DNA of 64,000 nucleotides from an uncultured Candidatus Saccharibacteria bacterium (GCA_964348785.1 CAYGDO010000003.1:57631-121630), one strand, 5' to 3'. Counted from the stretch's first letter, positions 22,872-40,906 are shown. Notes: generated by a model not told the origin, from the letters alone. Translations and numbers: made by a program.

Positions 22872-22890
22872 AAGACAATTATACATAAAT

Positions 22891-22988
22891 CCCGTTAGAA
22901 TCCCACAAACTTTACCTCATATTAACCAATTCTCTTTGAGTCTTCGTTTCTGCAACACTGCCAAAAAAATTGTTAAAATTCTAACGGG
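22891..22988. repeat. Inverted pair of the dispersed motif CCCGTTAGAA / TTCTAACGGG (22891-22900 and 22979-22988)
   Basis: Seen in sequence. Further copies lie at 37681-37692, 40618-40629 and 40787-40799. Confidence 0.6.
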
Positions 22989-23154
22989 ATAAAAGCTAAA
23001 TATTTGCCCCGTAAGCTTTTTTTGATATTATGGCACCTGAAGTTCTTTATACTACCTGATCAAATTAATCATGTATTAGTTTGAATTGACCGTCCCGTTT
23101 TTAAGCGGGATTAAGGACTCAATCACTCCGCCATGTGCGGACTGATCGTCCCAA

Positions 23155-23241
23155 GGAGAGGTGGCAGAGTGGTCTAATGCACTGGTCTTGAAAACCAGAA
23201 CGTCCGCAAGGGCGTCGCGAGTTCGAATCTCGCCCTCTCCG
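23155..23241 (+). tRNA. tRNA-Ser (TGA), type II, CCA not encoded
   Basis: Acceptor GGAGAGG/CCTCTCC; 3-bp D-stem with an 11-nt loop; anticodon arm CTGGT-CTTGAAA-ACCAG; long variable arm; T-arm GCGAG-TTCGAAT-CTCGC. Confidence 0.8.
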
Positions 23242-23285
23242 TATATAAAAAATCCCGCTTAAAAGACGGTGATTTTTTATATACG
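23242..23285 (+). terminator. Long A/T-rich hairpin TATATAAAAAATC…GATTTTTTATATA immediately after tRNA-Ser
   Basis: 13-bp inverted repeat with a 16-nt GC-containing loop. Confidence 0.4.
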
Positions 23286-23384
23286 GAGAGAGAAAAATTG
23301 AAAATTTTTCGGGTGAGATTCAAACGGATTGGCAGTCTACTGGTCGAGCACGACATGTCGACAATCCGACGCCTAGGATTTTTT

Positions 23385-23430
23385 CGAGCGACGGCGAAAA
23401 AAAATTGTAGGAGAAATTCTCGCCCTCCAT
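23385..23430 (+). repeat. Direct repeat R1 (core GAGCGACGGCGAA…TTGT…AGA…TTCTC), paired with R2 at 24519-24565
   Basis: 13-nt perfect core plus ~27 nt of imperfect match. Together R1 and R2 flank the SWIB gene, the membrane gene and tRNA-Arg(GCG). Confidence 0.5.
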
Positions 23431-23503
23431 AAAAATCAAAGTTTGCCTTTAAAAGTATATGTAATATAGTTATAGGGCTATTTAATAAGTAATAAAGAAA
23501 AAT

Positions 23504-23758
23504 ATGCCAAAAGCAAATTCCGCATTTATGAAGCCATTAAACATCAGCGCTGATTTAGCTGTTGTTGTTGGTGCAGGTCCTATGCCAAGATCAGAGGTCG
23601 TCAAAAAACTTTGGGAATATATAAAAGGAAAAAATCTCCAAGATCCAAAGAACAAGAGAAATATCAACGCCGACGAAGCATTAAAGAAAGTCTTTGGCGG
23701 GAAAGCTGTAGTTAATATGTTTGAAATGACCAAGTTGGTTTCAAAACATCTATCATAA
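23504..23758 (+). CDS. SWIB/MDM2-domain protein
   Basis: VVGAGPMPRSEVVKKLWEYIKGKNLQDPKNKRNINADEALKKVFG…MFEMTKLVSKHL matches the SWIB fold signature. Confidence 0.6.
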   Translation: MPKANSAFMKPLNISADLAVVVGAGPMPRSEVVKKLWEYIKGKNLQDPKNKRNINADEALKKVFGGKAVVNMFEMTKLVSKHLS

Positions 23759-23824
23759 AAACTACCAAATACACAAAACAAAAACCGCTTTTTAGCGGTT
23801 TTTGTTTTGTGTTAAAATTATCCT

Positions 23825-24286
23825 ATGATTAAAACTTTAATTTCTTGGCAAACTCCAGAATACATAATGGAGAAAAAAACTCCGGATTGGTATTGGGCTG
23901 TTGGAATAATATCAGTCGCCATAATGATTGCCTCAATTTTATTTAACAATATTTTGTTTGCCGTTTTTATTTTAATAGGTACGCTGACTATTTTTATGTA
24001 TGCCAAAAGAGATCCCGACATGATCGACATAGAAATAACAGAGGAAGGTGTAAGGGCAGGAAGAAATGTTTATCCCTATTCCCTACTAAATTCTTTTTTT
24101 GTTGATGAACAAAGAGATCCCCCACACCTGTTGTTAAAATCCTCCGGCATAACAAATCAACTTATATTGATACCAATAATCAAAGTAGATCCTCAAAAAG
24201 TTTATGATATTTTAAAACTGCAACTCGAGGAAGAAAAGTTGTCTGAACCACTTGCTATTCAAATTTTAGAAAGATTGGGATTTTAG
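23825..24286 (+). CDS. Membrane-anchored hypothetical protein
   Basis: 153 aa with two N-terminal TM helices and a soluble C-terminal domain. Confidence 0.35.
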   Translation: MIKTLISWQTPEYIMEKKTPDWYWAVGIISVAIMIASILFNNILFAVFILIGTLTIFMYAKRDPDMIDIEITEEGVRAGRNVYPYSLLNSFFVDEQRDPPHLLLKSSGITNQLILIPIIKVDPQKVYDILKLQLEEEKLSEPLAIQILERLGF

Positions 24287-24328
24287 AAAACTTTACTTTT
24301 CAGTCTATACAAATTAGATTCTTAATAC

Positions 24329-24400
24329 CCCCTCGTCGTTCAACGGATAGGACATGAGTTTGCGGAACTTAAAATAGAGGTTCGATTCCTCTCGAGGGGA
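24329..24400 (+). tRNA. tRNA-Arg-like (anticodon GCG) with an unusual C1-G72 acceptor; could be a pseudo-tRNA
   Basis: Acceptor CCCCTCG/CGAGGGG; D-stem GTTC/GGAC; anticodon arm TGAGT-TTGCGGA-ACTTA; T-arm AGAGG-TTCGATT-CCTCT. Confidence 0.5.
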
Positions 24401-24518
24401 TTATGTAACGAAGTGAAATAATCACCTCGAAGCGAATGGACTGCTTCATTCGCGTGAGGAATCGAAAGACGGAACTATGTTTTCTGTTTCAGAAAACAAG
24501 CGAGTCGGGGTCGCGACT

Positions 24519-24565
24519 TTTGTGAGCGACGGCGAACAAAAAGTTGTGACAGATTCTTCTCTGAA
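24519..24565 (+). repeat. Direct repeat R2, partner of R1
   Basis: See R1. Confidence 0.5.
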
Positions 24566-24745
24566 GAAATGAACAAAATGAAATAATCACCTCGAGAATA
24601 TCCCTATCCAAACACAACAAATCTCTCCAAAATAAACAAACCTTTTAAAACCCTTAATCAGGTTCTTTTAAAATTGTAAAAAATAATTAGTACCAATTTT
24701 GTAATAACTTTTTATCTCAATCGTCTTGTATTTGCAAAAGAAAAA

Positions 24746-24818
24746 GGGCGATTAGCTCATGTGGAAAGAGCGTGCCGTTGACGTCGGCAAGGTACAAGTT
24801 CAAATCTTGTATCGCCCT
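24746..24818 (+). tRNA. tRNA-Val (GAC)
   Basis: Acceptor GGGCGAT/ATCGCCC; D-arm GCTC-ATGTGGAAA-GAGC; anticodon arm TGCCG-TTGACGT-CGGCA; T-arm ACAAG-TTCAAAT-CTTGT. Confidence 0.75.
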
Positions 24819-24909
24819 CAAAGACTCTCAAACTGTAATATTTCAAATTTTCCAGCGTCTTCATAAGGTAAACATCTTTATACTTTATAAAAATCGTAAA
24901 AACAAAAAT

Positions 24910-25995
24910 ATGAACAAAACTACCACAATAACTGGAGTAATTATTACAATTATAATAATTGGGGGACTTATTTTTTATGCTAACCAAAAACCAATTCCAC
25001 CAATAGAACAGACCAAAACCCCTCAGACTACTTATACGAACTCTGATCAAACAAAACAGGCTGGTTTACCTACAGCAACAACAAATTCAAGTGTCTCCTC
25101 AACAGATACCACTGCCGTCTTAAATGGCACAGTCATTCCGCAAGGGTCTTTCACAAGCTATTGGTATGAATATGGCACTTCCTCCAACTTAGAAAACAAA
25201 TCATCAAGTCAAAAACAAATGATCGGCTCCGGTTTTACATCAATTACAGCACCTGGATATATCACGGGGCTAACAAAAAATACAATATACTTCTTCCGAA
25301 TAATAGCTGAGAACTCTTTTGGCCAAGTGACCGGTTCACAACATTCATTTCAAACAACTTTTGGTAATCCCCCACCAACAGGAAATGCTCCGGTCATGAA
25401 AACCTTAACGGCAACGGGGGTATCCAAAACCACAGCCAAGTTACACGGAGAAGTAAATCCTAACGGCGCACCAACTCAATTTTGGTTTGAATATGGACAA
25501 AACCCAAACTTGGGAAACACTACAGCTTTTGAAACTATAGGAAATGGAACAATAAAATTACCAGTATCCATCTCCTTATCAAATCTTAGTCCAGGAACTA
25601 TGTATTATTTTCGTCTTAATGCTCAAAATCAGTTTGGGACAATCACCGGTGAAATCCTAAATTTCAAAACCGACAATCCCCCATCAGCAACAGCTCCATC
25701 TGTCAGTACCAAAAACGCCACAAACATTAGCACTTCTACTGCCATGCTTAAAGGGACCGTCAATTCAAATGGGGCAGAAACATTATATTGGTTTGAATAT
25801 AGCGTCAGCCCCGCATTTACTTCATTGTTATCATACTCAACCGAAAAAAAATCTAGCGGAGCAGGCTTAGAAAACACATCAGTTGAAGGAAATATAATCA
25901 ACTTAAACTCAAAAACAAATTACTATTTTCGCCTAATCGCCCAAAACAATATGGGGCTTGTAAAAGGAGAACCCGTGACATTTAAAACGAAGTAA
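24910..25995 (+). CDS. Membrane-anchored surface protein with four tandem ~95-aa Fn3-like beta-sandwich repeats
   Basis: N-terminal TM helix, then a fourfold repeat L.G.VNPNG..T.YWFEYG…L…T.YYFRL.A.N.FG…G…F.T. The start is taken as the Met at 24910; the ORF-track 5' extension covers tRNA-Val. Confidence 0.55.
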   Translation: MNKTTTITGVIITIIIIGGLIFYANQKPIPPIEQTKTPQTTYTNSDQTKQAGLPTATTNSSVSSTDTTAVLNGTVIPQGSFTSYWYEYGTSSNLENKSSSQKQMIGSGFTSITAPGYITGLTKNTIYFFRIIAENSFGQVTGSQHSFQTTFGNPPPTGNAPVMKTLTATGVSKTTAKLHGEVNPNGAPTQFWFEYGQNPNLGNTTAFETIGNGTIKLPVSISLSNLSPGTMYYFRLNAQNQFGTITGEILNFKTDNPPSATAPSVSTKNATNISTSTAMLKGTVNSNGAETLYWFEYSVSPAFTSLLSYSTEKKSSGAGLENTSVEGNIINLNSKTNYYFRLIAQNNMGLVKGEPVTFKTK

Positions 25996-26019
25996 AAAAA
26001 TTATTAATAATAAAAAAAT

Positions 26020-26253
26020 ATGACAACCATCCTAAATACACCAGCGAATAATGGAAACGAAGAAAATTCAATCACCAGCATAGTAATCGGTGTCATTTTA
26101 ACGATAACAATTATCGCGCTCTTCCTTATCTACGGCTTACCCTCAATCCAATCTAATGACAAAAGTAAACTAGATGACACTATTAATATAAACCTAGAGT
26201 TACCAGCCGAAAAAGCGACAACACCCGATATAAAAACCAACCCCGCCTATTAA
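26020..26253 (+). CDS. Small single-TM protein (hypothetical)
   Basis: 77 aa with a central TM helix. Confidence 0.3.
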   Translation: MTTILNTPANNGNEENSITSIVIGVILTITIIALFLIYGLPSIQSNDKSKLDDTININLELPAEKATTPDIKTNPAY

Positions 26254-26284
26254 ATTAAAAATTAACAAAAAATCAATCAATATC

Positions 26285-26641
26285 ATGGACTCATTTAACT
26301 CTCCGAGCACACAACCCATCTATAGAGGAACGCAAATCGTCTGGTATGTTTTAGGTCTTATAGAAATTTTGCTTGCATTTAGAATAATTTTAAAACTCTT
26401 AGGCGCAAATCCAGATGCCGGATTTACCAGTTTTATTTACGGATCAACCTATATTTTTTCAGCCCCATTTCTAAATGTTTTTCGTGTCACACAACTTGAA
26501 GGCAACATTTTTGAATGGACAACGCTTCTAGGAATGTTTGTTTATTGGGTCATAGCTTTTGGCATTATAAAGTTATTTCTTATGGGCAAAACAGTATCAA
26601 CACCAGAAGCCGCCATAAAGCTTAATGACCAAGAAAAATAA
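26285..26641 (+). CDS. yggT: YggT-family membrane protein
   Basis: …YVLGLIEILLAFRIILKLLGANP…, two TM helices, ~100 aa, typical of YggT/Ycf19. Confidence 0.55.
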   Translation: MDSFNSPSTQPIYRGTQIVWYVLGLIEILLAFRIILKLLGANPDAGFTSFIYGSTYIFSAPFLNVFRVTQLEGNIFEWTTLLGMFVYWVIAFGIIKLFLMGKTVSTPEAAIKLNDQEK

Positions 26642-27202
26642 ATGAGAAAAAACAAATTAAATTTATCCCTCTTAGCAATAATCTTAATATCTATTGTATC
26701 GATTTCACCCATTTTTGCAGAAGAAAACGATGCCAAAAAAATAGAACTCGAAACACAATCTGTGAGTGAAAATGATAAAAATTTCAGTTCAGAGTCACAC
26801 AAAAACACCACTTCAAATCTTATCAAAAATTTAAAGAAGGTGTCCGACAAAGAAGGTGAGGCAGGAAATAAAATAAAAATTATTGCGAATGAGCAAGATA
26901 AATCAAATGAGATATCTTCAAACGCCATTAATGATGTTGAGGGTAGAGGAAATTTCAAAGCTTTCTTTCTTGGCAGTGATTACCAAAATATCGGTTTGAT
27001 TAGAAGTGAAATGGCAAAAACCAACAATCAAATTACCAAACTAAAAGAACTCATGAACGAGACAACAAATTCAGATGACAAGGTGACACTTGATACGCAA
27101 ATCAAACTTTTAGAAGAAGAGCAAACAAAAATTAGAATGTTTCTTAACCTCCACGAAGACAACTTCAGCTTGTTCGGCTGGCTTGTAAAAATTTTAAATT
27201 AA
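26642..27202 (+). CDS. Secreted coiled-coil protein (hypothetical)
   Basis: Signal peptide MRKNKLNLSLLAIILISIVSISPIFA followed by a K/E/N-rich helical body. Confidence 0.35.
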   Translation: MRKNKLNLSLLAIILISIVSISPIFAEENDAKKIELETQSVSENDKNFSSESHKNTTSNLIKNLKKVSDKEGEAGNKIKIIANEQDKSNEISSNAINDVEGRGNFKAFFLGSDYQNIGLIRSEMAKTNNQITKLKELMNETTNSDDKVTLDTQIKLLEEEQTKIRMFLNLHEDNFSLFGWLVKILN

Positions 27203-27203
27203 A

Positions 27204-27234
27204 ATAAAAAAAACCGCCTTGAGCGGTTTTTTTA
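27204..27234. terminator. Bidirectional rho-independent terminator between the coiled-coil gene and rpsT
   Basis: aaaaaaaCCGCcttgaGCGGttttttt. Confidence 0.6.
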
Positions 27235-27525
27235 TTTCTTAGTAGAAACCTTAGTTGTTGAAGTTTTTGCCTTATTTATAAGAGACATAAGTCGAGATTT
27301 CTTTCTTGAGGCGTTATTCTTCTTTATAGTCTTACTTTTTACTGCCTTATCAAAAGCCTGATAAGCATCAGGAACAAGTTTAACCGCTTCATCAATTTTC
27401 CCAGTAGATACCAATTTCTTTATTTGTCTAACAGGGTCTTGAATATTCTTTTTTCTGCGCAAATTAAAGACTCCTTTTCTAACGGATACTCTTAGGGCCT
27501 TTTTTGCTGATGATGTGATTGCCAT
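27232..27525 (-). CDS. rpsT: 30S ribosomal protein S20
   Basis: MAITSSAKKALRVSVRKGVFNLRRK…, the bS20 pattern. Confidence 0.8.
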   Translation of the reverse strand: MAITSSAKKALRVSVRKGVFNLRRKKNIQDPVRQIKKLVSTGKIDEAVKLVPDAYQAFDKAVKSKTIKKNNASRKKSRLMSLINKAKTSTTKVSTKK

Positions 27526-27572
27526 AATTTGTAGAGCGAATCCTAACAGAACAATTAAAAAATGGCAAGAAC

Positions 27573-28178
27573 TTGAGCTTATTATCTACGTGTTATTATT
27601 TATCTGTGATATACAAAATAACAGGTAAATTATTGGAACGAGAACTGGGTTACGCCGTCATAGAAGCTGGGGGCATCGGCTACAAAGTCTTTGCGACAGC
27701 CGAAACTCTAAACACAATTACCAAAAACAGTTCCAAAGAAGTCTCATTGTGGACGAGACTTTCAATCAAAGAGGACGCTTGGGATCTTTACGGTTTTCTA
27801 GAAAAAGAAGAAATGGAATTATTTGATCTCTTAATTTCTATCTCCGGAATTGGACCGAAAACTGGCATTTCTGTTTTAAACGCTTCTTCAATAGAAAACC
27901 TTAAAACCGCTATCGCTTCCGGTGATACTTCTTATCTAACAAAAATCTCTGGCATTGGCAGAAAAATTGCTGAAAAAATTATCTTTGAATTAAAAGAAAA
28001 AGTTGGGGGAAGTAAAGAAGCCGAAAAAGCTATGCAGGGCGATTCAGACGTTCTTCTGGCACTTCAATCACTTGGCTACAACGAAAGAGATGCTAGAGAG
28101 GCAGTCAAAAAATTGCCAAAAGAAGTTACCGGCACAAGTAACAGAATAAAAGAGACATTAAAATTGTTAGGTAAATAA
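27573..28178 (+). CDS. ruvA: Holliday junction DNA helicase RuvA
   Basis: …ITGKLLERELGYAVIEAGGIGYKVFA… (RuvA domain I) and a C-terminal domain III. The true start is probably GTG at 27606. Confidence 0.75.
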   Translation: MSLLSTCYYLSVIYKITGKLLERELGYAVIEAGGIGYKVFATAETLNTITKNSSKEVSLWTRLSIKEDAWDLYGFLEKEEMELFDLLISISGIGPKTGISVLNASSIENLKTAIASGDTSYLTKISGIGRKIAEKIIFELKEKVGGSKEAEKAMQGDSDVLLALQSLGYNERDAREAVKKLPKEVTGTSNRIKETLKLLGK

Positions 28179-28534
28179 TTCACAAAAAAGCACCGAGAGC
28201 GGTGCTCGAAGAAAAAAGGGAGGGCTAGCTGGCCTCAGCGGAGATTTGTTGCGCCTCATCAAGCTTAACCCATCCAACTTGGACCAGATACTGGAGGACA
28301 TCAATCCCCTTGCGACACGCCTCAGCGATCGTATCTTCGACCTGTTTACGCCAAGGGCGAACCGAAAGTGCAGGGCAAACTCTCCACAGAATAGTTGGAT
28401 TGAAACCATTCATACAGTCTTTCCGCACCCCAACAGAAGGAGTGCTTTACCAAATTAAATGTTACGCCTATTTTCACAAAATACAAATAAAAAGTGGCGG
28501 GATTTCTCCTGCCACCTAACCAGACACCGAAGCC

Positions 28535-28870
28535 TTACTTCTTCTTTTTGCCTTGCCCAGTCTTCCCCCGCCACGAACGATCCCGCCAGATGACGAGACT
28601 GTTCCAAGTGATCCTGACCGGAGAAATCCCGGCTCCGAGAGTAATTTTCAGAAAATCCGTGCGAATTGAGAAGCCCAATCCCGCATCCTCCAGGATCCCA
28701 ACGATCTCATTGAATTCCGGAGGATTAACTCCTTGGGCTTCATAATCCTCGAGGACGCCCATGATAACCCTGCGCAGAATTTCAGACCTGCTCGGCCTGC
28801 CTCCGTTTACTTTTCTAACTGATTTACCCATAAACTGTTGCCTGTCTGACGGGTTTTGAACGCTTCGCAC
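28535..28870 (-). CDS. Hypothetical basic protein inside GC island 1; weak resemblance to phage small-terminase/HTH-like proteins
   Basis: …GGRPSRSEILRRVIMGVLEDYEAQGVNPPEFNEIVGILEDAG… The coding frame is uncertain in GC-rich DNA. Confidence 0.25.
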   Translation of the reverse strand: MRSVQNPSDRQQFMGKSVRKVNGGRPSRSEILRRVIMGVLEDYEAQGVNPPEFNEIVGILEDAGLGFSIRTDFLKITLGAGISPVRITWNSLVIWRDRSWRGKTGQGKKKK

Positions 28871-28960
28871 CTGCGAATTAGTTCGTTACTTTAATATAAA
28901 AAATAGATTTTGTCAAATAAAAATACTCAATAAAAAATCCCCAGCCGAAACCGAGGAAAT

Positions 28961-29359
28961 CTAACTTCCGCACTCCCTATCAACCTGGAGTGGTAAATAA
29001 GGCTGGATAGAACAACGCGTGGGCCTACGGTTAAGGACGAAACTTGAAGACATAAGGCGGTTAAGGGCTAGACGAGCGACCCGAAGTCCGGCCCAGCCGG
29101 CCCACGAAGCCAGCAACACCAATGTCACCATCTCTGGCGACACGCTAATCGCCAGCGATTCCCTGGCGAAATACCCCGCCCCACTCCCAAGCATCCAAGA
29201 TGGAATGTGCCCCCACCCCACCAAATCCGAAAAGTGAACCAATGAGGGTTCAAAAAACACCAAACCCAAAAACCGATTCTGTTCCTCCCAACCGTAAAAG
29301 TCATTGGAAGTGAGAAACACGAAGTACAACACCGATAGAACTACGAGCGTTCTTTTCAT
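28961..29359 (-). CDS. Hypothetical secreted/membrane protein at the edge of GC island 1
   Basis: Signal peptide MKRTLVVLSVLYFVFLTS encoded in AT-rich DNA, followed by a GC-rich body. The N-terminus resembles that of the 37849-38823 protein. Confidence 0.3.
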   Translation of the reverse strand: MKRTLVVLSVLYFVFLTSNDFYGWEEQNRFLGLVFFEPSLVHFSDLVGWGHIPSWMLGSGAGYFARESLAISVSPEMVTLVLLASWAGWAGLRVARLALNRLMSSSFVLNRRPTRCSIQPYLPLQVDRECGS

Positions 29360-29446
29360 GGTGATTATTTCCTGACCAACTTATACCACTAAAATTAATA
29401 AACTGTCAATATCGAAAAACCAGCCTAAATAAGCGATATTAAGCAA

Positions 29447-30709
29447 ATGGACAATTTGCTAAAAATCACAAAAAATATAATTCCCAAAAAACTCTTTAAA
29501 ACCCTCCAACCTATATACCATTACAAACTAGCCCTTTTAGGCGCACTTCTCTATCGATTTCCTTCTAAAAAAATAAAAGTCATTGGTGTCACTGGAACCA
29601 AAGGAAAAAGTTCAACAACTGAAATGATTGCTCATATCCTACGAAATGCTGGATTTAAGACGGCATCCGCCAGCACTGTTCGTTTCCAAATTGGTGAAAA
29701 TGCCAAAAGAAATATGTTTAAAATGACAATGCCAGGCAGATTTTTTATTCAAAAATTTTTGAGAGACGCTGTAAATCAAAAATGTCATTTTGCGGTAATT
29801 GAAATTAGTTCGGAAGGCGCAAAACAATATAGACACAGATTCATTGATTTAGACGCTCTAGTGTTCACAAATTTAGCAAAAGAACATATTGAATCTCACG
29901 GCTCTTATGAAAAATATGTTGAAGCCAAATTATCTATTGCTAGTTCTCTAAGCAAATCTCCAAAAAAACAAAAATTCATGATTGGAAACATAGATGACAC
30001 CGAAACCTCCAAATTTTTTGAAAAAGCCCTACCAGCAAAACCTGTTACATACTCCTTAAAAGAAGCCGATAAAATCAAAGAAAAAGAAAATGGAATTGAT
30101 TTTGAAATTGAAGGAAAAAAAATTCATTCCAACCTAGTTGGCAAATTCAACATTTATAACTGGCTGGCCACTTGGAAAACAGTTTCAAATTTTGGAATTT
30201 CAATAGAACAATTTAAAAAAGCAGTTGAAGAATTAAAAGAAATTCCTGGCAGAGCTCAAATTATAAAAAAAGGCGACATTGAATGTGTAATTGATTATGC
30301 TCACACACCCGAATCTTTAGAGGCAATTTACAAAGCTTTTCCAAACAAGAAAAAAATCTGTATTTTGGGAAATACAGGCGGAGGCAGAGATACTTGGAAA
30401 AGACCTGAAATGGCTAAAATTGCTGACAAACATTGTGAGACTATTATCCTGACAAACGAAGACCCTTACGATGAAGATCCTATGAAAATAATCAATGATA
30501 TGGCCGTTGTTATCCCAAAAGATAAATTGTTTGTAGAAATAGATAGAAGAAAAGCCATAAATACAGCCATAAAAATGGCCGACAAGGATTCAATTGTCAT
30601 AATTACTGGCAAAGGAACTGATCCTTATATCATGGGCAAAAATGAAGAAAAAACTCCATGGGACGATAAAACCGTAGTCGAGGAAGAATTGGGGAAAATA
30701 AAAAATTAA
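29447..30709 (+). CDS. murE: Mur ligase, MurE-like (UDP-MurNAc-tripeptide synthetase)
   Basis: VIGVTGTKGKSSTTEMIAHIL (ATP-binding) and DYAHTPESLEA (MurE DYAHTP motif). Confidence 0.75.
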   Translation: MDNLLKITKNIIPKKLFKTLQPIYHYKLALLGALLYRFPSKKIKVIGVTGTKGKSSTTEMIAHILRNAGFKTASASTVRFQIGENAKRNMFKMTMPGRFFIQKFLRDAVNQKCHFAVIEISSEGAKQYRHRFIDLDALVFTNLAKEHIESHGSYEKYVEAKLSIASSLSKSPKKQKFMIGNIDDTETSKFFEKALPAKPVTYSLKEADKIKEKENGIDFEIEGKKIHSNLVGKFNIYNWLATWKTVSNFGISIEQFKKAVEELKEIPGRAQIIKKGDIECVIDYAHTPESLEAIYKAFPNKKKICILGNTGGGRDTWKRPEMAKIADKHCETIILTNEDPYDEDPMKIINDMAVVIPKDKLFVEIDRRKAINTAIKMADKDSIVIITGKGTDPYIMGKNEEKTPWDDKTVVEEELGKIKN

Positions 30710-30762
30710 ATATCAAAAATGTCTTTATCTTCTATTTTTAATATTTAATTTTTGATTTAATT

Positions 30763-31671: not shown

Positions 31672-31707
31672 ACTGGATTAGAAAAAATTAAGATATATAA
31701 TTGTCTT

Positions 31708-32763: not shown

Positions 32764-32764
32764 G

Positions 32765-33250
32765 TTAAAACGAGGAAAAAAGAAAGACCGCAAGAGCAAT
32801 ATTTACATTTAAGGACTCCTTGTTGCCCCTCATTGGAATCTCTACTATTTCATCACACACATCCAAATCTTCCTTAGAAAAACCCTCTCGTTCCCTACCC
32901 ACCACTACTGCCATCTTTGAAGTTGCCTTAAAATCTTTAAAATTTGTAGACCTCTTATCTTGTTCAAGAGCTACAATTTTAATATTCTGTTTCTTTAAAT
33001 TTTCAACCGCATCAACAAAACTTTTAAAATATTCGTAAGAAACTGTTTTTTCAGCACCTAAGGAAACTTTAGAAAAATCTTTCCTTGTTCTTCCAAACCT
33101 GTCTATTGGCTCTGGTGTAACACCACACAAAATTATTTTCTTAACACCAACACAATCAGCAATACGAAAAATAGAAGCGGTGTTAAAGACACTTCTTATG
33201 TTGTTCAAAACCACAATAGGCTCAAGATTTTTATTAACGCCATCTTTCAT
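32765..33250 (-). CDS. SpoU/TrmH-family RNA 2'-O-methyltransferase
   Basis: VVLNNIRSVFNTASIFRIADCVGV…EIPMRGNKESLNVNIALAVFLF, SPOUT motifs I-III. Confidence 0.75.
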   Translation of the reverse strand: MKDGVNKNLEPIVVLNNIRSVFNTASIFRIADCVGVKKIILCGVTPEPIDRFGRTRKDFSKVSLGAEKTVSYEYFKSFVDAVENLKKQNIKIVALEQDKRSTNFKDFKATSKMAVVVGREREGFSKEDLDVCDEIVEIPMRGNKESLNVNIALAVFLFSSF

Positions 33251-33269
33251 AAAACAACTTTATAAGCGA

Positions 33270-33305
33270 CGTAGAGCGAGGGAAATGAAAACTGTTTGAA
33301 GTTTT
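33270..33305. promoter_or_regulatory. Perfect 12-bp palindrome GGAAATGAAAAC-n8-GTTTTCATTTCC in the divergent promoter region, plus a second inverted repeat TATATAGTCC…GGACTATATA at 33330-33420
   Basis: Seen in sequence. It lies between the divergent SpoU-family and doxX genes. Confidence 0.35.
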
Positions 33306-33449
33306 CATTTCCGAGCCGAGGAGTTTATATAGTCCCTCTAAAAATGCACGTTTCTGCCACGCAAGCAGAACGAATCTTTGAGTTCCAATTACCTCAAGGT
33401 TTGCCCCGATGGACTATATAATTAAACATTATTCTGTTAAAATTGCCAC

Positions 33450-33854
33450 ATGTTAAATACATTTCCAACATTGTTAGCTTTTGGCTTATTAGCCCCTTTT
33501 ATTCTTAGAATTTGTATTGGTTTAATAATGCTTGATTTTGGTTATTCAAAAATATCCAAATTGAAGTCCGATAAAACAGTGATGTTTGAATCACTGGGCA
33601 TGAAACCGGGTATCTATTACGTTTATATTTTTGGATTAGTAGAAATAGTTGCAGGACTAGCATTAATCGCTGGATTCTTTACTCAGATTGCCAGTTTAAT
33701 AACATTTATAATTTGTCTTTTGGCCATACTCGTCAAAAGACGAAACTCTGAAAACGTTAAGAGTTCATACACGACCCTTATCCTATCCATGATGATAGCT
33801 CTATCATTAATATTCTCTGGTGCAGGTTTCTTGGCTTTTGATTTACCGTTGTAA
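33450..33854 (+). CDS. DoxX-family membrane protein
   Basis: 134 aa with 4 TM helices and the DoxX-like N-terminus LLAFGLLAPFILRICIGLIMLDFGYSKI. Confidence 0.55.
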   Translation: MLNTFPTLLAFGLLAPFILRICIGLIMLDFGYSKISKLKSDKTVMFESLGMKPGIYYVYIFGLVEIVAGLALIAGFFTQIASLITFIICLLAILVKRRNSENVKSSYTTLILSMMIALSLIFSGAGFLAFDLPL

Positions 33855-33904
33855 AAATCACAAAGCTGTATTGCAAAACTTATATAAAACAAAGTTGTTT
33901 TCTG

Positions 33905-33977
33905 TCCGCCCGGGGGGAATCGAACCCTCGACCATCTCCTTAAAAGGGAGCTGCTCTACCAACTGAGCTACGGGCGG
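33905..33977 (-). tRNA. tRNA-Lys (TTT), unusual C1-G72 acceptor, CCA not encoded
   Basis: D-arm GCTCAGTTGGTAGAGC; anticodon loop CTTTTAA; T-arm GAGGG-TTCGATT-CCCCC; acceptor CCGCCCG/CGGGCGG. Confidence 0.7.
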
Positions 33978-34035
33978 AATAGAGAATAATTTAAGCTTTT
34001 ATTGACAAAAAGTAAAGCTGGTTTTTTAAGGATCG

Positions 34036-34737
34036 TTACACCCCCAACAAAAAAATCTCTAAAGCATTTTCCAAAGTATATTCCCCCCTATGACCTCTAT
34101 GATAAATTTCAACTAATTTTGAAAGCCACTTTTGTATCTCCCCTTCTTTGAAATTTTTTAAAAAACCTTTTGCCTTAGAGAAAACAAAAGGTTTCATTTT
34201 TGCCTCAACGGCATCCTTTGAAACCTCAGCAATCGCCAAAGATTTAATTTGCCAAAAAATCGTACCGTGAATTTCTTCTGGCTGGAATCCTTCTTCTATA
34301 AGTTTTCTATAGATAAGCCATGAGTGTTTCTTATCTCTCCTTCCAATCGAATCTGCCAAAGCAAAGATATTGGTAGGCTCTTTTTTGAAATTTTTTGATT
34401 TAATATCATGTAAAATAATATTTTTTCTTTTAACTTCTTCTTTCCAAACTCCAACGCTTAAAGAAACCACAAAAGTATTTTGAGAATTTTCAAACTTATC
34501 TAAATTTTCCAAAAAATTACTAACTGTCGCTTTATCAGCTCCCGTAATATCAAACAAAATTAAAGTGCCTCCGCCAAAAAGGCTTTTAGACAAAACCAGC
34601 TCATCCCAATTCAAAGGCAAACTAGAATCCAATTCATTGAAAAAATAATCCCGATTGGTAGCCAAAAAATCTTTAGCAAATTTTTTTGCCTCAATTCGGA
34701 CATCACTCTCATTTTCTCCAATAAAAACGTGCAACAC
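34036..34737 (-). CDS. holA: DNA polymerase III delta subunit-like (HolA)
   Basis: N-terminal MLHVFIGEN…, with an AAA+-lid-like alpha/beta region then a helical one. Immediately downstream of polA, a short CPR-style version. Confidence 0.45.
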   Translation of the reverse strand: MLHVFIGENESDVRIEAKKFAKDFLATNRDYFFNELDSSLPLNWDELVLSKSLFGGGTLILFDITGADKATVSNFLENLDKFENSQNTFVVSLSVGVWKEEVKRKNIILHDIKSKNFKKEPTNIFALADSIGRRDKKHSWLIYRKLIEEGFQPEEIHGTIFWQIKSLAIAEVSKDAVEAKMKPFVFSKAKGFLKNFKEGEIQKWLSKLVEIYHRGHRGEYTLENALEIFLLGV

Positions 34738-34747
34738 TTTTTTATTT

Positions 34748-37153
34748 TTAATATTTAATTTTCTCTAATTCAGCCCAATTTTTGCCAGCTGAAGCATCAA
34801 CGACAATCGAAACCCCTTCGCTTTTTTCTGCTGGTAAACAAGTCTCCATAATATTTTTTATTTCCTTCGAAACAGAATCGACTAGAGAATTCTCCACCTC
34901 ATAAACCAATTCGTCGTGAACTTGAAGCAATAAATTTACCTTCCCTGTTAAACCTTTTTTAATCAAAAAATCATCAGTCCGGACCATTGCTAACTTTATA
35001 ATGTCAGCCTCAGTGCCTTGAATCGGCGCATTGATAGCCATTCTTTCAGCCCCAGCTCTTACAAAAGGCAACTTAGAATTTATACCCTCAAAATATCTGC
35101 GTCTTCCAAAGAGTGTTTCAGTAAAACCTTTTTCACCTGCACTCTTTTTCGTATCCTCTAAATATTTTGCCAAACCCGAAAATTTCTCAAAATAATCATT
35201 ATAAAATTTCTGAGCGTCTTCTCTCTTAAACTCTATGGGCATACCATTGCTATCAATCGCCAACTGAGCCCGTAAAGCATTTACCCCCATCCCATACATC
35301 ACTCCAAAATTTATAGCTTTAGCTCTTCTTCTCATTTCTTTATCAATCTTATCTATCGGCACCCCAAAAACGGATGAAGCTACTGCCGAATGAATATCTT
35401 TGCCTTGCTTGAAAATTTCTATAAGATTTTCATCTTTAGAAATAATCGCCGCTATACGAAGTTCTATTTGAGAATAATCCAAAGACAACAAACTAAAACC
35501 ATCTTTGGCCGTAAAAGCCTTTCTAATCTCCTTACCCATTTCTGTATGATTTGGAATATTTTGCAAATTAGGATTTTCTGAGGACATTCTTCCTGTCGTC
35601 GTGCCCGCCTGAATAAAGCGCGCATATAATCTGCCATCAATACCAATAACTGGTATCAAATTTTCTATATAAGTCGAAAGGACTTTCGCCAGCTCTCTAT
35701 ATTTTACGATATAAGGGATAACTTCATGTTCTTCGTACAACTTTAAAAGTTCCGATTCTTTTGTGGACAATGCTCCTCCCGGGGTTTTCTTTTGTCCTTT
35801 TGCTTTTAATCCCAATTTAACAAAAAGTACTTCGCCAAGTTGTTTTGGTGAAGCAATATTAAATTCTGTACCAGTCATTTTCCAAATTTTCTTTTCAATT
35901 TGAGCAAGTTCTAAAGAGTATTTTTTTCTTAATTGTTTCAAATGTCCTATATCAACAGAAACTCCCGCCCTGTTCATCTTTTCAACTACGGGTAAAAGTG
36001 GTTTTTCTATTTCCTGAAACACTTCAGTCAAATTCATTTCTTTTATTTTCTTCTCCAAGAAAACCTTGGCATCTTTTAGAGAATTGGTATTGGAAAAATT
36101 TAAGACATCTTCAATTGAAGGGTCCGTAACAGACGAATTTACAAGCCACAACATCAATTTTATTTCTTCTTTTTCTTTTTCAGTTAAAACATCCTCTACT
36201 TTTTCAACATTCTCCTTTTTCAAATCACCCTTAATTCCTTTAATCTCCCTCAATCTTTCAGACATAGTTCTAAATTCAAATTTGGAAAAAATAGTTTGGG
36301 CTTGTTCCAAATCTAATTCATCAATCCATTTTTTCTCTGGCAATTTAAAATTAATAGGTGCATCAACCCTAATAGAAGCCAAGATTTTACTAAACTCAGC
36401 TTCTTCCTTGCCCGCTTTCAACAACTCTATGATTCTTGGTTTAAAACCCAAATCTAAAAACCTTTTTTCATCTTTCTGTAATGCCTTATAAATATTTTCA
36501 ACAGAACCAAAATTGGTAATTAAAGAGGTAGCAGTCTTTTCGCCAATACCTTTTATACCAATAATATTGTCCGACTGATCACCGGACAATCCTTTGTAAT
36601 CTGGAATAAGTTTTGGTGAAAATCCAAAACGTTTAAATACCGCGTCTTCGTTATATAAAATTGTATCGTTGATACCTTTTTTGAGAGTATAAACTAAAAC
36701 CTTATCGTCACTGACCAATTGCAAAGTATCCATATCGCCAGAGGCAATAACGATTTGCAAATCATGGTTATCTTTTGTTTTATCAACTATTGTTCCTAGA
36801 ATATCGTCAGCTTCAAAACCTTCTTTATCATAAATTGGAATTGAGAATGCCTTTAAAACATCTCTCGAACTTTGAAGTTGAGATACGAGTTCATCATCAG
36901 CTTTTTTTCTGCCAGCTTTATATTCTTTATAAACCTCATGACGGTGCGTTGGTTTTGGTAAATCATAAGCTGCAATAATATAATCGGGCTTTAAATCTTT
37001 AGCTATTTTAATCACCATTGAACACAAACCGTACAAAGCGCCCGTGGGCTCCCCTTTAGATGACGCAAACTGAGGTAGAGCGTGATAAGCCCGATGAATT
37101 ATGGCGTGAGCATCAAGCAAAACTATTTTTTTTCTATTTGAGTTTTCCTTCAC
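34748..37153 (-). CDS. polA: DNA polymerase I (5'-3' exonuclease plus polymerase domains)
   Basis: N-terminal 5'-nuclease (…LLDAHAIIHRAYHAL…) and C-terminal polymerase motifs A (DYSQIELR), B (RRRAKAINFGVMYG) and C (VHDELV). Confidence 0.9.
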   Translation of the reverse strand: MKENSNRKKIVLLDAHAIIHRAYHALPQFASSKGEPTGALYGLCSMVIKIAKDLKPDYIIAAYDLPKPTHRHEVYKEYKAGRKKADDELVSQLQSSRDVLKAFSIPIYDKEGFEADDILGTIVDKTKDNHDLQIVIASGDMDTLQLVSDDKVLVYTLKKGINDTILYNEDAVFKRFGFSPKLIPDYKGLSGDQSDNIIGIKGIGEKTATSLITNFGSVENIYKALQKDEKRFLDLGFKPRIIELLKAGKEEAEFSKILASIRVDAPINFKLPEKKWIDELDLEQAQTIFSKFEFRTMSERLREIKGIKGDLKKENVEKVEDVLTEKEKEEIKLMLWLVNSSVTDPSIEDVLNFSNTNSLKDAKVFLEKKIKEMNLTEVFQEIEKPLLPVVEKMNRAGVSVDIGHLKQLRKKYSLELAQIEKKIWKMTGTEFNIASPKQLGEVLFVKLGLKAKGQKKTPGGALSTKESELLKLYEEHEVIPYIVKYRELAKVLSTYIENLIPVIGIDGRLYARFIQAGTTTGRMSSENPNLQNIPNHTEMGKEIRKAFTAKDGFSLLSLDYSQIELRIAAIISKDENLIEIFKQGKDIHSAVASSVFGVPIDKIDKEMRRRAKAINFGVMYGMGVNALRAQLAIDSNGMPIEFKREDAQKFYNDYFEKFSGLAKYLEDTKKSAGEKGFTETLFGRRRYFEGINSKLPFVRAGAERMAINAPIQGTEADIIKLAMVRTDDFLIKKGLTGKVNLLLQVHDELVYEVENSLVDSVSKEIKNIMETCLPAEKSEGVSIVVDASAGKNWAELEKIKY

Positions 37154-37203
37154 AACTTAATTCTACATTAAAGCAAGTAAAAGAAAATTGACTGAACCTA
37201 AAT

Positions 37204-37638
37204 TTAAAATGTTAATTTTCTTGTAGTTTCGTCTATAAATTCAAAATTTATTTTGTAAGCATTATTTGGAATAGACTCCTTCACTATTTCTGGCCATTCC
37301 ACAAAAATTAAATTGTCGCTGTCCTTGAGTAATTCCGCAAACCCCAGAACCCCTAATTCTGAACTGTTATTTAAACGATAAACATCCATATGAATTAAGT
37401 TTTTAAACTTAAATCTTAAATCTTTAATTTTAAATCTTTTTTGAATGACAAAAGTGGGACTGGTGATATCTTCTTGTATGCCGAGTGTGCTCGCTACGCA
37501 TTTAACAAACGCTGTTTTGCCAGAACCAAGTTCACCAAACAAAACCACAACTGTGGCATTGTCCCCTTTTTCAATCTTGGATAAAAAATCAGAAGCCAAC
37601 TTTTGCGTATCTTCTAAACTTTTACTTAAAAATTCCAT
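37204..37638 (-). CDS. tsaE: tRNA threonylcarbamoyladenosine biosynthesis ATPase TsaE
   Basis: VVLFGELGSGKTAFVKCV and SPTFVI motifs. Confidence 0.75.
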   Translation of the reverse strand: MEFLSKSLEDTQKLASDFLSKIEKGDNATVVVLFGELGSGKTAFVKCVASTLGIQEDITSPTFVIQKRFKIKDLRFKFKNLIHMDVYRLNNSSELGVLGFAELLKDSDNLIFVEWPEIVKESIPNNAYKINFEFIDETTRKLTF

Positions 37639-37680
37639 ATCCGCATTTTATATTAAAAGAGAGTCGTTAGACAAATCAAT

Positions 37681-37692
37681 CCCGTTAGAAGC
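37681..37692 (+). repeat. Dispersed motif copy CCCGTTAGAAGC, with a degenerate copy GTCGTTAGACAA 15 nt upstream
   Basis: Seen in sequence. Confidence 0.5.
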
Positions 37693-37787
37693 CACGGACA
37701 CTGACTCTGGATTAAAAAACATTGTTAAAAAATAATTAAAATCTAAAAATATAGGGACGTAGATAATCTGTCCGTGTCCTGCTTTTA

Positions 37788-37828
37788 ACGGGATAAAAAA
37801 AGCCCCCCGCGATGCAAGCATCGCGAGG
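37788..37828 (-). terminator. Rho-independent terminator of the Gly/Tyr-rich protein gene
   Basis: CGCGATGC-ttg-CATCGCG followed by GGGGC and a T7 run on the minus strand. Confidence 0.55.
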
Positions 37829-37848
37829 GATTGAAATTCGCTTGGCGA

Positions 37849-38823
37849 CTAATGTCGCCTTCCTCCTCCACTTGGAGTGGACCCAGAGGACACCTGTCCT
37901 CCGTGATTCAAACCAGAAGAAACACTTCCCCCGATCGTCGCGCCACCACCCCAGGAGTAGGTGTTTTCACGGGTATACCCGACGTTGCTCGGATAAACGT
38001 TGAGGATGGCACCGCCACCCACGGAAAACCCTGAGGACGAGTACGACTGACTGCCATACCCGAAACCAGACCCTCTATGGCTGGACCGAGATTGTCCGCC
38101 ATAAACACCGCCCCCGGAATAGGCCTGACCTCCATAGGTCTGCCCGCCGTAAACACCACCACCAGAGTAAGCCTGACCTCCGTACACTCCGCCAGAGTAG
38201 GCTTGTCCACCATAAGTTCCTCCGGAGAAGGCCTGCCCTCCATAGGTACCGCCCGAAAAGACTTGGCCTCCGTAGGACTGGTAGCTTCCGTAGCCACCAT
38301 CACAGCAGGGTTGTGGATCACAACATTGCTGGACCACAACCACCTGCGGAGGTGGAGATGGGTCGGCGAGGTGACGAACAGCGCGGTAAGACTTTTGCCC
38401 TGTGGCATAATCCACCACTTCCGTAATGTAATTCGTCCCAATCACTTCATCCCGCGAGTTACGGACAAGCACCACTCGGTGCGTTTCCACTCGCGAGTCC
38501 CGATAATGAGGCGATCGAGGATCGGTCGGAAGAATTTCCTCATCCGGGACACCAACACCGCTGGCAAAAAGACCTTCCGCCATCCCCTCCTTACTAACTG
38601 GAATCATTCCCGTGGAAGTGGACACCTCATTAGTAGTTACAGAGGGAGAATTGGTTTCGACCATGATGACCACATTGGTCACGATCACGGTCACCGTATT
38701 GGTTACGACTGGAGGAGGGACCGACATTTCCACCTTCGCGACGACACCTGTCGTCCACAGCGTGGCCGGCATCGAGGAGACAGCGAAACCGAAAACCGAC
38801 AACAAAACGATTAGAGTTTTCAT
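37849..38823 (-). CDS. Secreted Gly/Tyr/Gln-rich low-complexity repeat protein with a Cys cluster (QQCCDPQPCCDGG), encoded in high-GC island 2
   Basis: Signal peptide MKTLIVLLSVFGFAVSS, then ~9 tandem YGGQ(A/V)(Y/F)SGG(T/V) repeats. GC is roughly 58%. The frame is supported by the in-frame signal peptide and by the repeat periodicity. Confidence 0.5.
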   Translation of the reverse strand: MKTLIVLLSVFGFAVSSMPATLWTTGVVAKVEMSVPPPVVTNTVTVIVTNVVIMVETNSPSVTTNEVSTSTGMIPVSKEGMAEGLFASGVGVPDEEILPTDPRSPHYRDSRVETHRVVLVRNSRDEVIGTNYITEVVDYATGQKSYRAVRHLADPSPPPQVVVVQQCCDPQPCCDGGYGSYQSYGGQVFSGGTYGGQAFSGGTYGGQAYSGGVYGGQAYSGGGVYGGQTYGGQAYSGGGVYGGQSRSSHRGSGFGYGSQSYSSSGFSVGGGAILNVYPSNVGYTRENTYSWGGGATIGGSVSSGLNHGGQVSSGSTPSGGGRRH

Positions 38824-38941
38824 TGAGTAGATGGGTTGAATTGTTTGAGAACAGCTACATTTAATTATATCATAAAAATAGATAAAGTCAAACAAGATAA
38901 ACGCCCTTTTTACAAAGCCAGATAAAGGTTAAAATAGTCCC

Positions 38942-40615
38942 ATGGTAACTTTTGATGAAGACAAATCGCGTTTAAAAATAGCTGAAATAAAGGAACAAGA
39001 AGAGGAAGGACTGCTCCGAGAAATGGCTGATAATTTAGGTTTGCCATTTACTACAGTTTTATCAAACGCCATAGAAATTGATGCCTTAAATTTTGTAAAA
39101 GAAGAAGAAGCCAGAAAAATCCAATGTATCCCCTTCAAACTAGATGGCAAGGTAATATCAATCGCAGCAAGATGGCCAGAAAATGAAGAATTTTTGAAAA
39201 TTGTAGAACGCATAAAAGCTATGGGCTACAGTGTTGAAATTAGCGTGACGTCAGAAAAAATTCTAGAACGTGCATTTGAAGCATACAAAAATCTGTCTTT
39301 GAGTATAGCCTCAAAAGCTGGAACAGTTGATATAACAGCAGAAGCTCTAAATGAATACGTAACAAAAGTAACTTCGGTTGCTGACATACAAAAAATCCTA
39401 GCTGAAAATAAAGAAAAAAAGTTTATAAACACTTCTCATACTTTAGAAATAATCTTAGCTGGTGCAATTTCCACCAAAGCTTCTGACATACATTTAGAAG
39501 CAGGAGAACAAGATGCGAGACTAAGATATAGATTGGACGGTATGCTCTATGACATTTTTTCTTTTGACCATAAAACATTCCATTCCATCTTGTCTCGTAT
39601 TAAATTGCTTTCCGGTCTGAAACTCAACATAAAAAGCGAGGCTCAAGACGGACGTTTTGCGATAGCAATCGGCGATGGAGCAATTGAAATCAGAACCTCT
39701 ATTGTGCCTGGCGGTTTTGGAGAATCTTCCGTTCTAAGAATATTGAATCCAAAATCAATATCCGTTCCTCTTGAAGATTTAGGTTTTAACAAAAAACTTC
39801 TTGGGATTATTTCTGACTTAATTTCACGCCCACAAGGTATGATTTTAACGACCGGTCCAACAGGAAGCGGAAAAACAACAACACTTTATGCTTGTCTAAA
39901 AAAAGTTTACGAACCATCACTTAAAATTTTAACTATTGAAGATCCTATAGAATACCGTTTGGGAGGTATCGTCCAAACGCAAGTTGATGAGAAAAAAGGT
40001 TACGGTTTTATGCTTGGTTTACGCTCAGCTCTTAGACAAGACCCAGACATAATAATGGTCGGAGAAATAAGAGATGAAGAAACTGCACGAACAGCAATTG
40101 ATGCCGCCTTAACCGGCCACTTAGTCTTTTCCACTCTTCATACAAATAACGCCGCTGGTGCCTTCACTCGTCTTATTGATTTAAAAGTAAATCCAAAAGT
40201 CATAACCTCTGCCCTATCAGCATCTCTGGCCCAAAGACTTATAAGAAAACTTTGTCCAAACTGTAGAAAAGAAGTCACGTTAGAAGGTAAAGATAAAGAG
40301 TCTATAGAAAAAATTGTTGCAGGAATGCCATACAAAGATGAAATCACAAATACTACTAAAATGTGGGTGCCTGCTGGTTGCGAAAAATGTTCTGGCATTG
40401 GTTACAAAGGCAGAATCGGAGTTTATGAAGCAATTCTTTCAAGCGGTGAAATTGAAAAAGTGGTTGAAGCCAATCCAAGTGAAAGAGAAATCCAAAAAGT
40501 GGCCCGCGCGCAAGGCATATACAACATGGCAGAAGATGGGGTAGCAAAAGTCTTACAAGGAATTACATCTTTAGACGAACTAAAACGCGTTGTCGATATT
40601 GAAAACACAAATTAA
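38942..40615 (+). CDS. pilB: Type IV pilus/type II secretion assembly ATPase (PilB/GspE family)
   Basis: N-terminal GSPII_E_N-like domain; Walker A GPTGSGKTTTLYA; Asp box; Walker B IMVGEIRD; His box; a C-terminal tetracysteine. Confidence 0.85.
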   Translation: MVTFDEDKSRLKIAEIKEQEEEGLLREMADNLGLPFTTVLSNAIEIDALNFVKEEEARKIQCIPFKLDGKVISIAARWPENEEFLKIVERIKAMGYSVEISVTSEKILERAFEAYKNLSLSIASKAGTVDITAEALNEYVTKVTSVADIQKILAENKEKKFINTSHTLEIILAGAISTKASDIHLEAGEQDARLRYRLDGMLYDIFSFDHKTFHSILSRIKLLSGLKLNIKSEAQDGRFAIAIGDGAIEIRTSIVPGGFGESSVLRILNPKSISVPLEDLGFNKKLLGIISDLISRPQGMILTTGPTGSGKTTTLYACLKKVYEPSLKILTIEDPIEYRLGGIVQTQVDEKKGYGFMLGLRSALRQDPDIIMVGEIRDEETARTAIDAALTGHLVFSTLHTNNAAGAFTRLIDLKVNPKVITSALSASLAQRLIRKLCPNCRKEVTLEGKDKESIEKIVAGMPYKDEITNTTKMWVPAGCEKCSGIGYKGRIGVYEAILSSGEIEKVVEANPSEREIQKVARAQGIYNMAEDGVAKVLQGITSLDELKRVVDIENTN

Positions 40616-40906
40616 ACCTCGTTAGAAGCTAACAGAGCACAAAATATTAAAACAATCAGAACCATAGTGTGTTTATGGTATTGATTGACTAGCAAAATAC
40701 TAATTTTAGTTAAAAAATTCACTAAGTTTCCTCCAAACCACATCAAACATCAGATAAAACGCACACTCAATAATATGTTGCAACTTGCTTCTAACGGGGT
40801 AAAGCTGTTGTAGTTTATCTCTTTCTTTCCAAATCAAAAAAAGGGGCTTGTAAATATTGCCTCTTTCGTAAAAAAGTTAAAATGGTCATAGAGATCATAT
40901 AAATCA

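Follow-up and report, generated by a model that had tools for sequence, protein, structure and literature searches.

Three intergenic units in a 64,000-nucleotide stretch of DNA from an uncultured Candidatus Saccharibacteria bacterium (GCA_964348785.1 CAYGDO010000003.1:57631-121630; the whole of this stretch is called the window below) are probably copies of a mobile element. These units, designated E1, E2 and E3, are best explained as non-autonomous, non-coding, hairpin-forming elements resembling miniature inverted-repeat transposable elements (MITEs), in which 13-bp terminal inverted repeats (TIRs) of the form Y-CCCGTTAGAA-R-Y most likely enclose a variable core of 60-160 bp, and a 4-bp TNNA target has probably been duplicated on insertion. 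The hallmarks of MITEs are TIRs, a target duplication, small size and the absence of a transposase (PMC3184786). The units described here have defined inverted ends, flanking target-site duplications and a small size without a transposase gene; they occur in several copies, are patchily present or absent among relatives, and belong to a family that extends over many phyla and in which nested insertions occur.

The first-pass annotation of the window had reported five copies of an over-represented 12-mer, arranged as inverted pairs downstream of genes, and had taken them for a candidate uptake signal or regulatory repeat. Comparison with dinucleotide-preserving shuffles of the window (G+C, 35%) upholds the over-representation at the places that it named, in that the 10-mer core CCCGTTAGAA occurs exactly four times against an expectation of 0.13, with four or more occurrences in 0 of 100 shuffles. 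The full 12-mer CCCGTTAGAAGC occurs exactly only twice (37681-37692 on the plus strand and 40787-40798 on the minus strand), and its excess with up to two mismatches, 7 against 2.7 expected, is marginal. When one or two mismatches are allowed, the copies number six rather than five and form three inverted pairs (22891/22988, 37681/37792 and 40618/40798), a both-arm pattern with a chance expectation of 0.00 in the window. The true partner of the copy at 37681 is not a degenerate tandem copy, as had been thought, but the inverted arm GCTTTTAACGGG at 37781-37792, about 100 nt downstream; TCGTTAGAC (37665-37673), 17 nt upstream of 37681, lies outside the E2 unit, and a two-mismatch match at 40276-40287 inside pilB is a chance match. 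The inverted pairing itself is thus real and E3 does lie directly 3′ of pilB, but E1 is upstream of ruvX, and E2 is not directly 3′ of a gene.

All six arms are intergenic, at a density of about one per 10 kb, and none is in coding sequence. DNA-uptake signals are dense (about one per kb), are found inside genes too and are specific to a lineage. The proposal that the repeat is such a signal (DNA uptake sequence, DUS, or uptake signal sequence, USS) draws on the over-representation of the word and on the type IV pilus genes nearby, but the arms are sparser than that and intergenic only, always bound units of 100-183 bp with flanking 4-bp repeats, and are common to many phyla rather than to a single family; we give this proposal next to no credence. 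A regulator-binding site, which had also been suggested, would leave the flanking duplications, the nested insertions and the presence or absence of units among relatives unaccounted for.

Each unit in the window has TIRs of 12-13 bp, with ends of the form (T/C)CCCGTTAGAA(G/T)(C/T) and the complement, and lies between 4-bp repeats (Table 1). If transcribed, E1-E3 would be expected to fold into long hairpins: single strands of all three are predicted to fold far more stably than shuffled controls (z from -3.0 to -6.5), with z = -4.75 and -3.89 for E1 and z = -6.49 for E2, a member of the subfamily A described below. A fourth unit in the same genome, E4, is wedged between the stop codons of convergent genes for a dCMP deaminase-like and a HIT-family protein, which makes four copies in about 80 kb of the source genome. 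Searches with Rfam 15 returned only tRNAs from the whole window at gathering score, and no credible family match for E1-E3 at E-values up to 10.

Table 1. Coordinates of the elements, their parts and neighboring features (window positions unless a contig is named)
Feature	Position	Strand	Length	Details
E1	22890-22989		100 bp	Left end TCCCGTTAGAAT (22890-22901); right end ATTCTAACGGGA (22978-22989); 13-bp perfect stem
E1 flanking repeat	22886-22889 (left); 22990-22993 (right)			TAAA
E2	37680-37793		114 bp	Subfamily A; flanks TCAA/TAAA, 3 of 4 positions identical
E2 helix 1	37680-37692 paired with 37781-37793
E2 internal loop	37693-37695 opposite 37780			CAC opposite T
E2 helix 2	37696-37701 paired with 37774-37779			GGACAC paired with GTGTCC
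E3	40617-40799		183 bp	Left end CCTCGTTAGAAGC (40617-40629); right end GCTTCTAACGGGG (40787-40799)
E3 flanking repeat	40613-40616 (left); 40800-40803 (right)			TAAA; left copy holds the pilB stop codon TAA (40613-40615)
E4	L142 15142-15332		191 bp	Same genome, about 5 kb past the left edge of the window; flanks TTTA/CTTA
Exact CCCGTTAGAA	22891; 37681
Exact CCCGTTAGAA	22979; 40789	-
Intrinsic terminator of gene 37849-38895	37803-37830	-		12 pairs, 8 of them G-C; T run; not part of E2
57-aa open reading frame	37648-37821 (L001 8707-8880)	-		Probable annotation artefact
ruvX	22143-22871	-
tRNA-Ser	23155-23241
Inverted repeat at tRNA-Ser	23226-23299		29 nt	86% complementary
pilB	38942-40615
Candidate non-coding RNA	40835-41176	-
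Its promoter-like sequence	41176-41148			TTGACA-17-TATGCT with upstream TG
Its inverted repeat	40907-40927 / 41046-41066		21 bp	Perfect
Open reading frame over it	40946-41227		93 aa	Broken by indels

The copies in the window have the look of old and largely passive insertions. E1 lies between ruvX and a tRNA-Ser gene, just upstream of ruvX; its left end is 2 nt from a TATAAT box, which is 6 nt upstream of the ruvX start codon, and part of the promoter region of ruvX may by now come from E1. E2 is located between the start region of tsaE and the minus-strand terminator of gene 37849-38895 and adjoins the end of the T-tract of that terminator, and E3 begins one base past the pilB stop codon. A 57-aa open reading frame (ORF) called in public assemblies does no more than span E2, and is probably an artefact of annotation to which the element gave rise.

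The gene order around pilB and ruvX is kept in contigs of three related populations, whose PilB is 87% (L004), 83% (L006) and 65% (L007) identical to that of the window. In L006, E3 occupies the same site; its ends there are perfect and the unit as a whole is 83% identical. It is missing from L004, where the spacer between pilB and ruvB is 187 bp shorter and the flanks have diverged too far for a clean empty site to be recognized. E2 is missing from the orthologous site in L007, which holds only a terminator. The terminator of gene 37849-38895 is kept, with compensatory changes, in L006, where the site of E2 (4343-4408) is occupied by a different hairpin with a 20-bp stem, TCCGGTAGTAGATTTTGGCA ... 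TGCCAAAATTCACTACCGGA. This hairpin may represent a second family of such elements, or may have replaced E2. E1 has orthologs in both of the closer relatives (L133 and L134), but substitutions without compensation have altered its distal arm there, or each of its arms: CCCGTT has become CCTATT in one of the two, and CCCG has become TTAG and ACGGG has become ATAGG in the other. Patchy presence together with decay of the arms fits old insertions of a mobile element, and argues against a conserved RNA structure for E1.

The ends are not confined to the window. A scan of GTDB, one genome per species, for both arms spaced 61-121 nt apart matched at least 120 stretches in many phyla, against about 16-33 chance matches by our own estimate at uniform base composition. 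Within the Patescibacteria, the matches listed include Saccharibacteria, the Nomura-, Kaiser-, Nealson-, Moran-, Kazan and Levyi- groups and others; outside this phylum, matches are found in Omnitrophota, Planctomycetota, Desulfobacterota, Nitrospinota, Thermodesulfovibrionales, Edwardsbacteria and Stahlbacteria. The composition of the core tracks that of the host, G+C-rich cores occurring in G+C-rich genomes. The pattern is present in only 4 of 2.9 million viral contigs, and a phage origin was rejected.

The anatomy of the family was derived from 135 elements taken from among the matches listed. The 4-nt flanks are identical in register in 88 of 136 cases (65%), compared with 0-3 when the register is shifted by 1-2 nt, and follow the pattern TNNA (TGAA, 20; TTCA, 13; TAAA, 11; TTTA, 8; TGAG, 8). 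The stem is 13 bp long; its outermost base pair is T..A in 64 elements and C..G in 64, and the variable positions 10 and 11 are complementary in 125/135 and 117/135 elements, respectively, compared with 61 and 57 in shuffles. Element length has a median of 113 bp and a range of 68-161 bp, and hairpin-only versions of 24-51 bp also occur (L082 and L129). Nested insertions carry perfect duplications of their own, as in L129, in which a 26-bp unit flanked by TTTA lies inside a unit flanked by TGAA. A hairpin element also lies within a repeat of about 300 bp that is present in at least four near-identical copies (L020, L027 and L089) in the metagenome-assembled genome (MAG) DX4.bin27; this larger repeat may be a composite or second-order mobile unit.

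The hairpin-only versions, and the intergenic inverted pairs about 100 bp apart, resemble repetitive extragenic palindromic (REP) sequences or REPINs, which would be spread by a RAYT (IS200-like) enzyme. The description of the repeat as REP-like, offered at first, is apt insofar as it is an interspersed palindromic repeat, but its anatomy, with TIRs, a target-site duplication and a variable core, is that of a MITE. Moreover, the arms are not self-complementary and have no GTAG head, the 4-bp duplications contradict a REP origin in that REPs make no target duplication, and neither the window nor the loci examined showed a RAYT gene, although these were not searched systematically. Spread as a REP or REPIN is accordingly very improbable.

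Many members of the family sit exactly on the boundaries of genes. Of the 135 elements, 70 are followed right after one arm, at offset 0, by the start of a reading frame of 60 codons or more. The genes concerned are ordinary housekeeping genes, among them those for ribosomal proteins L1 and L11, topoisomerase I, the alpha and beta subunits of ATP synthase, FtsH, IF-3, several tRNA synthetases, MurG, ClpP, SecD/F, PilB/C and, in one genome, RuvX; the idea that the units are mobile gene cassettes was discarded, the neighboring genes being core housekeeping genes. The start codon is rebuilt from the terminal base of the element and the duplicated TG, so that elements of the T..A type yield ATG and those of the C..G type yield GTG, the left flank then reading ATGAAC and the right flank GTGAAx. 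For 19 elements, the upstream gene has its stop codon within the left flank repeat or at the border of it, typically at what were formerly ATGA overlaps, and E3 at pilB is of this stop-codon-in-left-repeat type.

The old ATG is kept upstream of the element in 47 cases, and its frame is free of stop codons through the whole element in 19 of them, compared with 5.3 +/- 2.1 in shuffles (maximum of 14 in 500); the corresponding numbers are 4 and 0 for the other forward frames and 2, 3 and 7 for the reverse frames. Of the 19, 13 terminate at the TAA of TTCTAACGGG, which lies 7 nt ahead of the rebuilt start, five terminate at the TGA of an ATGA overlapping the start (+1), and one is fused in frame. 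The encoded peptides are not conserved past the MNPVR encoded by the arm. Programmed bypass by the ribosome between the duplicated codons was considered and rejected, because in elements of the C..G type the take-off codon is not the same as the landing codon (ATGAAC and GTGAAA). Hexamers resembling a -10 box cluster at 6-11 nt on the 5′ side of the old ATG, whereas words resembling a Shine-Dalgarno sequence are rare, which suggests that mRNA leaders at these genes are very short or absent.

In the model that we favor for these MITE-like elements, the units would be moved, now or formerly, in trans by an enzyme that recognizes the conserved ends, the simplest candidate being a DDE transposase that cuts with a 4-bp stagger. 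The copies to survive in compact genomes would be those whose duplication preserves the signals of the neighboring genes. A duplicated TAA or TGA would retain the stop codon of the upstream gene, as with E3 at pilB and with E4, and a duplicated TG joined to the last base of the element (A or G) would rebuild ATG or GTG for the downstream gene. When an element is inserted on a start codon, the old ATG would open a short frame, often running through the element to a TAA or TGA in the 3′ arm, and termination 7 nt before the rebuilt start, or overlapping it, would allow termination-reinitiation. Judging from the sequences, translation presumably re-initiates at the rebuilt start; re-initiation following translation from the old start would explain the survival of insertions at the starts of essential genes.

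The same features may also be read as those of a resident, non-mobile hairpin acting in cis at the RNA level, for example as a processing site, a stabilizer or a device for translational coupling. The stable hairpins and their covariation, the strict adjacency and orientation to start codons, the open upstream frames that end beside the start codon and the retention of E3 between the window and L006 are all in keeping with such a role. Against this, the 4-bp repeats in register, and the nested copies with repeats of their own, need insertion events, and in relatives the decay of the E1 arms goes uncompensated. In addition, none of the three window elements (0/3) is on a start codon, E2 points into a terminator, and the neighboring genes have no common function. 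A resident RNA is therefore regarded as quite improbable.

Covariation is also seen across 27 elements in subfamily A, in which the stem is interrupted by an internal loop (asymmetric, 3/1) and resumes as helix 2. Double substitutions in helix 2 give GATCGC/GCGATC, GGTCGC/GCGACC and GGACGC/GCGTCC, and GGACAC/GTGTCC in E2. Pairing is kept in 97% of cells, compared with about 40% when the partners are slid, five of the six helix pairs have changed on both sides, and a second register is equally kept. With this asymmetry as the guide to orientation, one and the same arm is turned towards the gene start in all 23 of 23 cases; either the elements insert in a set orientation, or only those in one orientation persist.

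These properties bring in a site-specific recombinase that recognizes hairpins and would move the element as a folded single strand or a small circle, by a logic like that of integron attC sites and Xer. The joined ends would form a core-type site of 11-6-11 organization, TTCTAACGGG-R-TNNA-Y-CCCGTTAGAA, and an overlap that is asymmetric would set the direction of insertion. The attC boxes, of core and inverse-core consensus, are identical to the hexamers GTTAGA and TCTAAC; the two-helix stem of subfamily A with its asymmetric 3/1 loop and covarying pairs, the orientation to the target fixed in 23/23, a target resembling R-TNNA-Y and the lack of any transposase seen near the elements speak for this mechanism as well. 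However, the polarity of the boxes, here 5′-GTTAGA..TCTAAC-3′, is opposite to that of attC, and a 4-bp overlap is atypical for tyrosine recombinases. Where the outer bases of the hexamer R-TNNA-Y differ between its two sides, they follow the element and not the target, which fits a 4-bp duplication better, the neighbors are core housekeeping genes rather than cassette arrays, and no recombinase was identified. Movement by such a recombinase is thus considered unlikely.

Several observations weigh against a MITE-like origin of the units. No transposase or autonomous partner was found in 915 kb around the 135 elements, the scans of the collection covering ends up to 600 bp apart, and the ORFs between long-range end pairs with matching flanks, tried as candidates for an autonomous partner, are ordinary genes only. 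Exact conservation of 11-13 nt at the ends across phyla is unusual for a MITE family, and no core sequence is shared among E1-E3 or between them and the 135 other elements, so that the family is defined by its ends alone. The L004 site that lacks E3 shows no clean footprint of excision, and the identical copies in DX4.bin27, considered as a sign of recent movement, belong to the larger repeat of about 300 bp. A simple scan for a promoter carried in the elements found -10-like hexamers without positional excess over the opposite strand; a promoter is a possibility in one subfamily that has TATAAA-GACAGAC beside the arm. Finally, the covarying helix 2 and the fixed orientation, which are not predicted by a plain cut-and-paste model, point to selection on the folded strand or on a function.

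A bolder reading is possible but doubtful at present. The family might be a mobile hairpin that seeks start and stop codons and neutralizes its own insertion, with re-initiation on the short-leader or leaderless mRNAs that are frequent in these lineages and with a recombinase acting on the folded strand by attC-like logic in reverse. On these tentative terms, the conserved ends, the covarying helix 2 and the fixed orientation could reflect a folded strand recognized by a widely shared recombinase, and not by a classical transposase.

Several other features of the loci deserve mention in their own right. Between pilB and ruvB, on the minus strand, lies a candidate structured non-coding RNA that has a promoter-like sequence and a branched fold closed by a perfect inverted repeat of 21 bp (Table 1). 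Its core is near-invariant in L004 and L006 and recognizable in L007, the 65% relative, its intrinsic terminator shows a compensatory change in L004, and a 93-aa ORF over it is broken by indels; no match was found in Rfam at E-values up to 10. RuvX (YqgF) carries a tRNA-binding domain fused at its C terminus (PF03652 + PF01588), and the fusion is kept in about 80 homologs of the lineage. The 3′ end of the tRNA-Ser gene is one arm of a 29-nt inverted repeat whose other arm follows shortly downstream, an arrangement kept in the relative L134. Gene 37849-38895, on the minus strand, has a locally high G+C content and encodes a Gly/Ser/Tyr-rich product with repeated GGYGGQ-like units and no Pfam domain, which is shorter or different in relatives (244-283 aa). 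Many PilB homologs of Paceibacterota are about 964 aa long rather than about 558 aa, and contain a large insertion with matches to extra P-loop-type domains, which may be an intein or an inserted domain.

The genomes of the candidate phyla radiation (CPR) are tiny and gene-dense and are thought to be poor in mobile DNA. One repeat family whose 13-bp ends hardly vary, spread over dozens of classes of these bacteria and over unrelated phyla, would usefully mark gene flow and a mobilizing enzyme. By lying exactly on start and stop codons of essential genes, its members illustrate how an insertion can be rendered harmless, and the rebuilt starts and open frames provide a testable case of re-initiation on short-leader mRNAs. 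For annotation, the units account for odd "intergenic" gaps, spurious small ORFs and GTG starts. A search of the literature on the motif, and on MITEs in these phyla, found nothing relevant; the family, its conservation across phyla and its habit of occupying start and stop codons appear to be new, and its kind, the MITE, is known.

Among known systems, the Correia elements (CREE) of Neisseria are about 100-160 bp long, with TIRs, a short target duplication, no transposase and RNA hairpins (PMC3184786). They are like the present family in size, TIRs, target duplication and hairpin RNA, in lying often 5′ of genes and in their presence or absence among strains, but their duplication is TA, their ends measure 26 bp and they occur in one genus only. 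The present family, in contrast, duplicates a 4-bp TNNA, keeps its 13-bp ends across phyla around cores unrelated between lineages, and has many members at offset 0 from a start codon. The piggyBac/IS1380 elements duplicate the 4-bp TTAA, with TAAA, TCAA and TATG as reported variants, and have ends that begin with CCC (PMC10813416). A 4-bp T..A duplication and CCC-type ends (here Y-CCCG) are common to both, a resemblance only but one that offers a lead; here, however, an extra Y/R base pair lies outside the CCC and no transposase was found beside the ends.

Integron attC sites share with the elements the GTTAGA/TCTAAC boxes, a length of 57-141 bp, a position at gene boundaries, and a stem in two parts that is asymmetrically bulged and variable at its center. 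They have the polarity 5′-RYYYAAC ... GTTRRRY-3′ and stand at the 3′ ends of cassettes in arrays beside intI. In the present family the box polarity is reversed, there are no arrays and no integrase, the neighbors are core genes, and 4-bp duplications occur at the boundaries; given the reversed polarity and the core-gene neighbors, the element is not an attC. The mycobacterial MIRUs are intercistronic repeats whose short frames overlap the stop and start codons of their neighbors. Similarly, the REP2 units of Neisseria and the IR units of Borrelia supply an ATG (PMC3184786). All three resemble the present family in being repeats placed exactly between genes, with coupling frames or a supplied ATG, but differ from it in being tandem or promoter-carrying and in having neither TIRs nor a target duplication.

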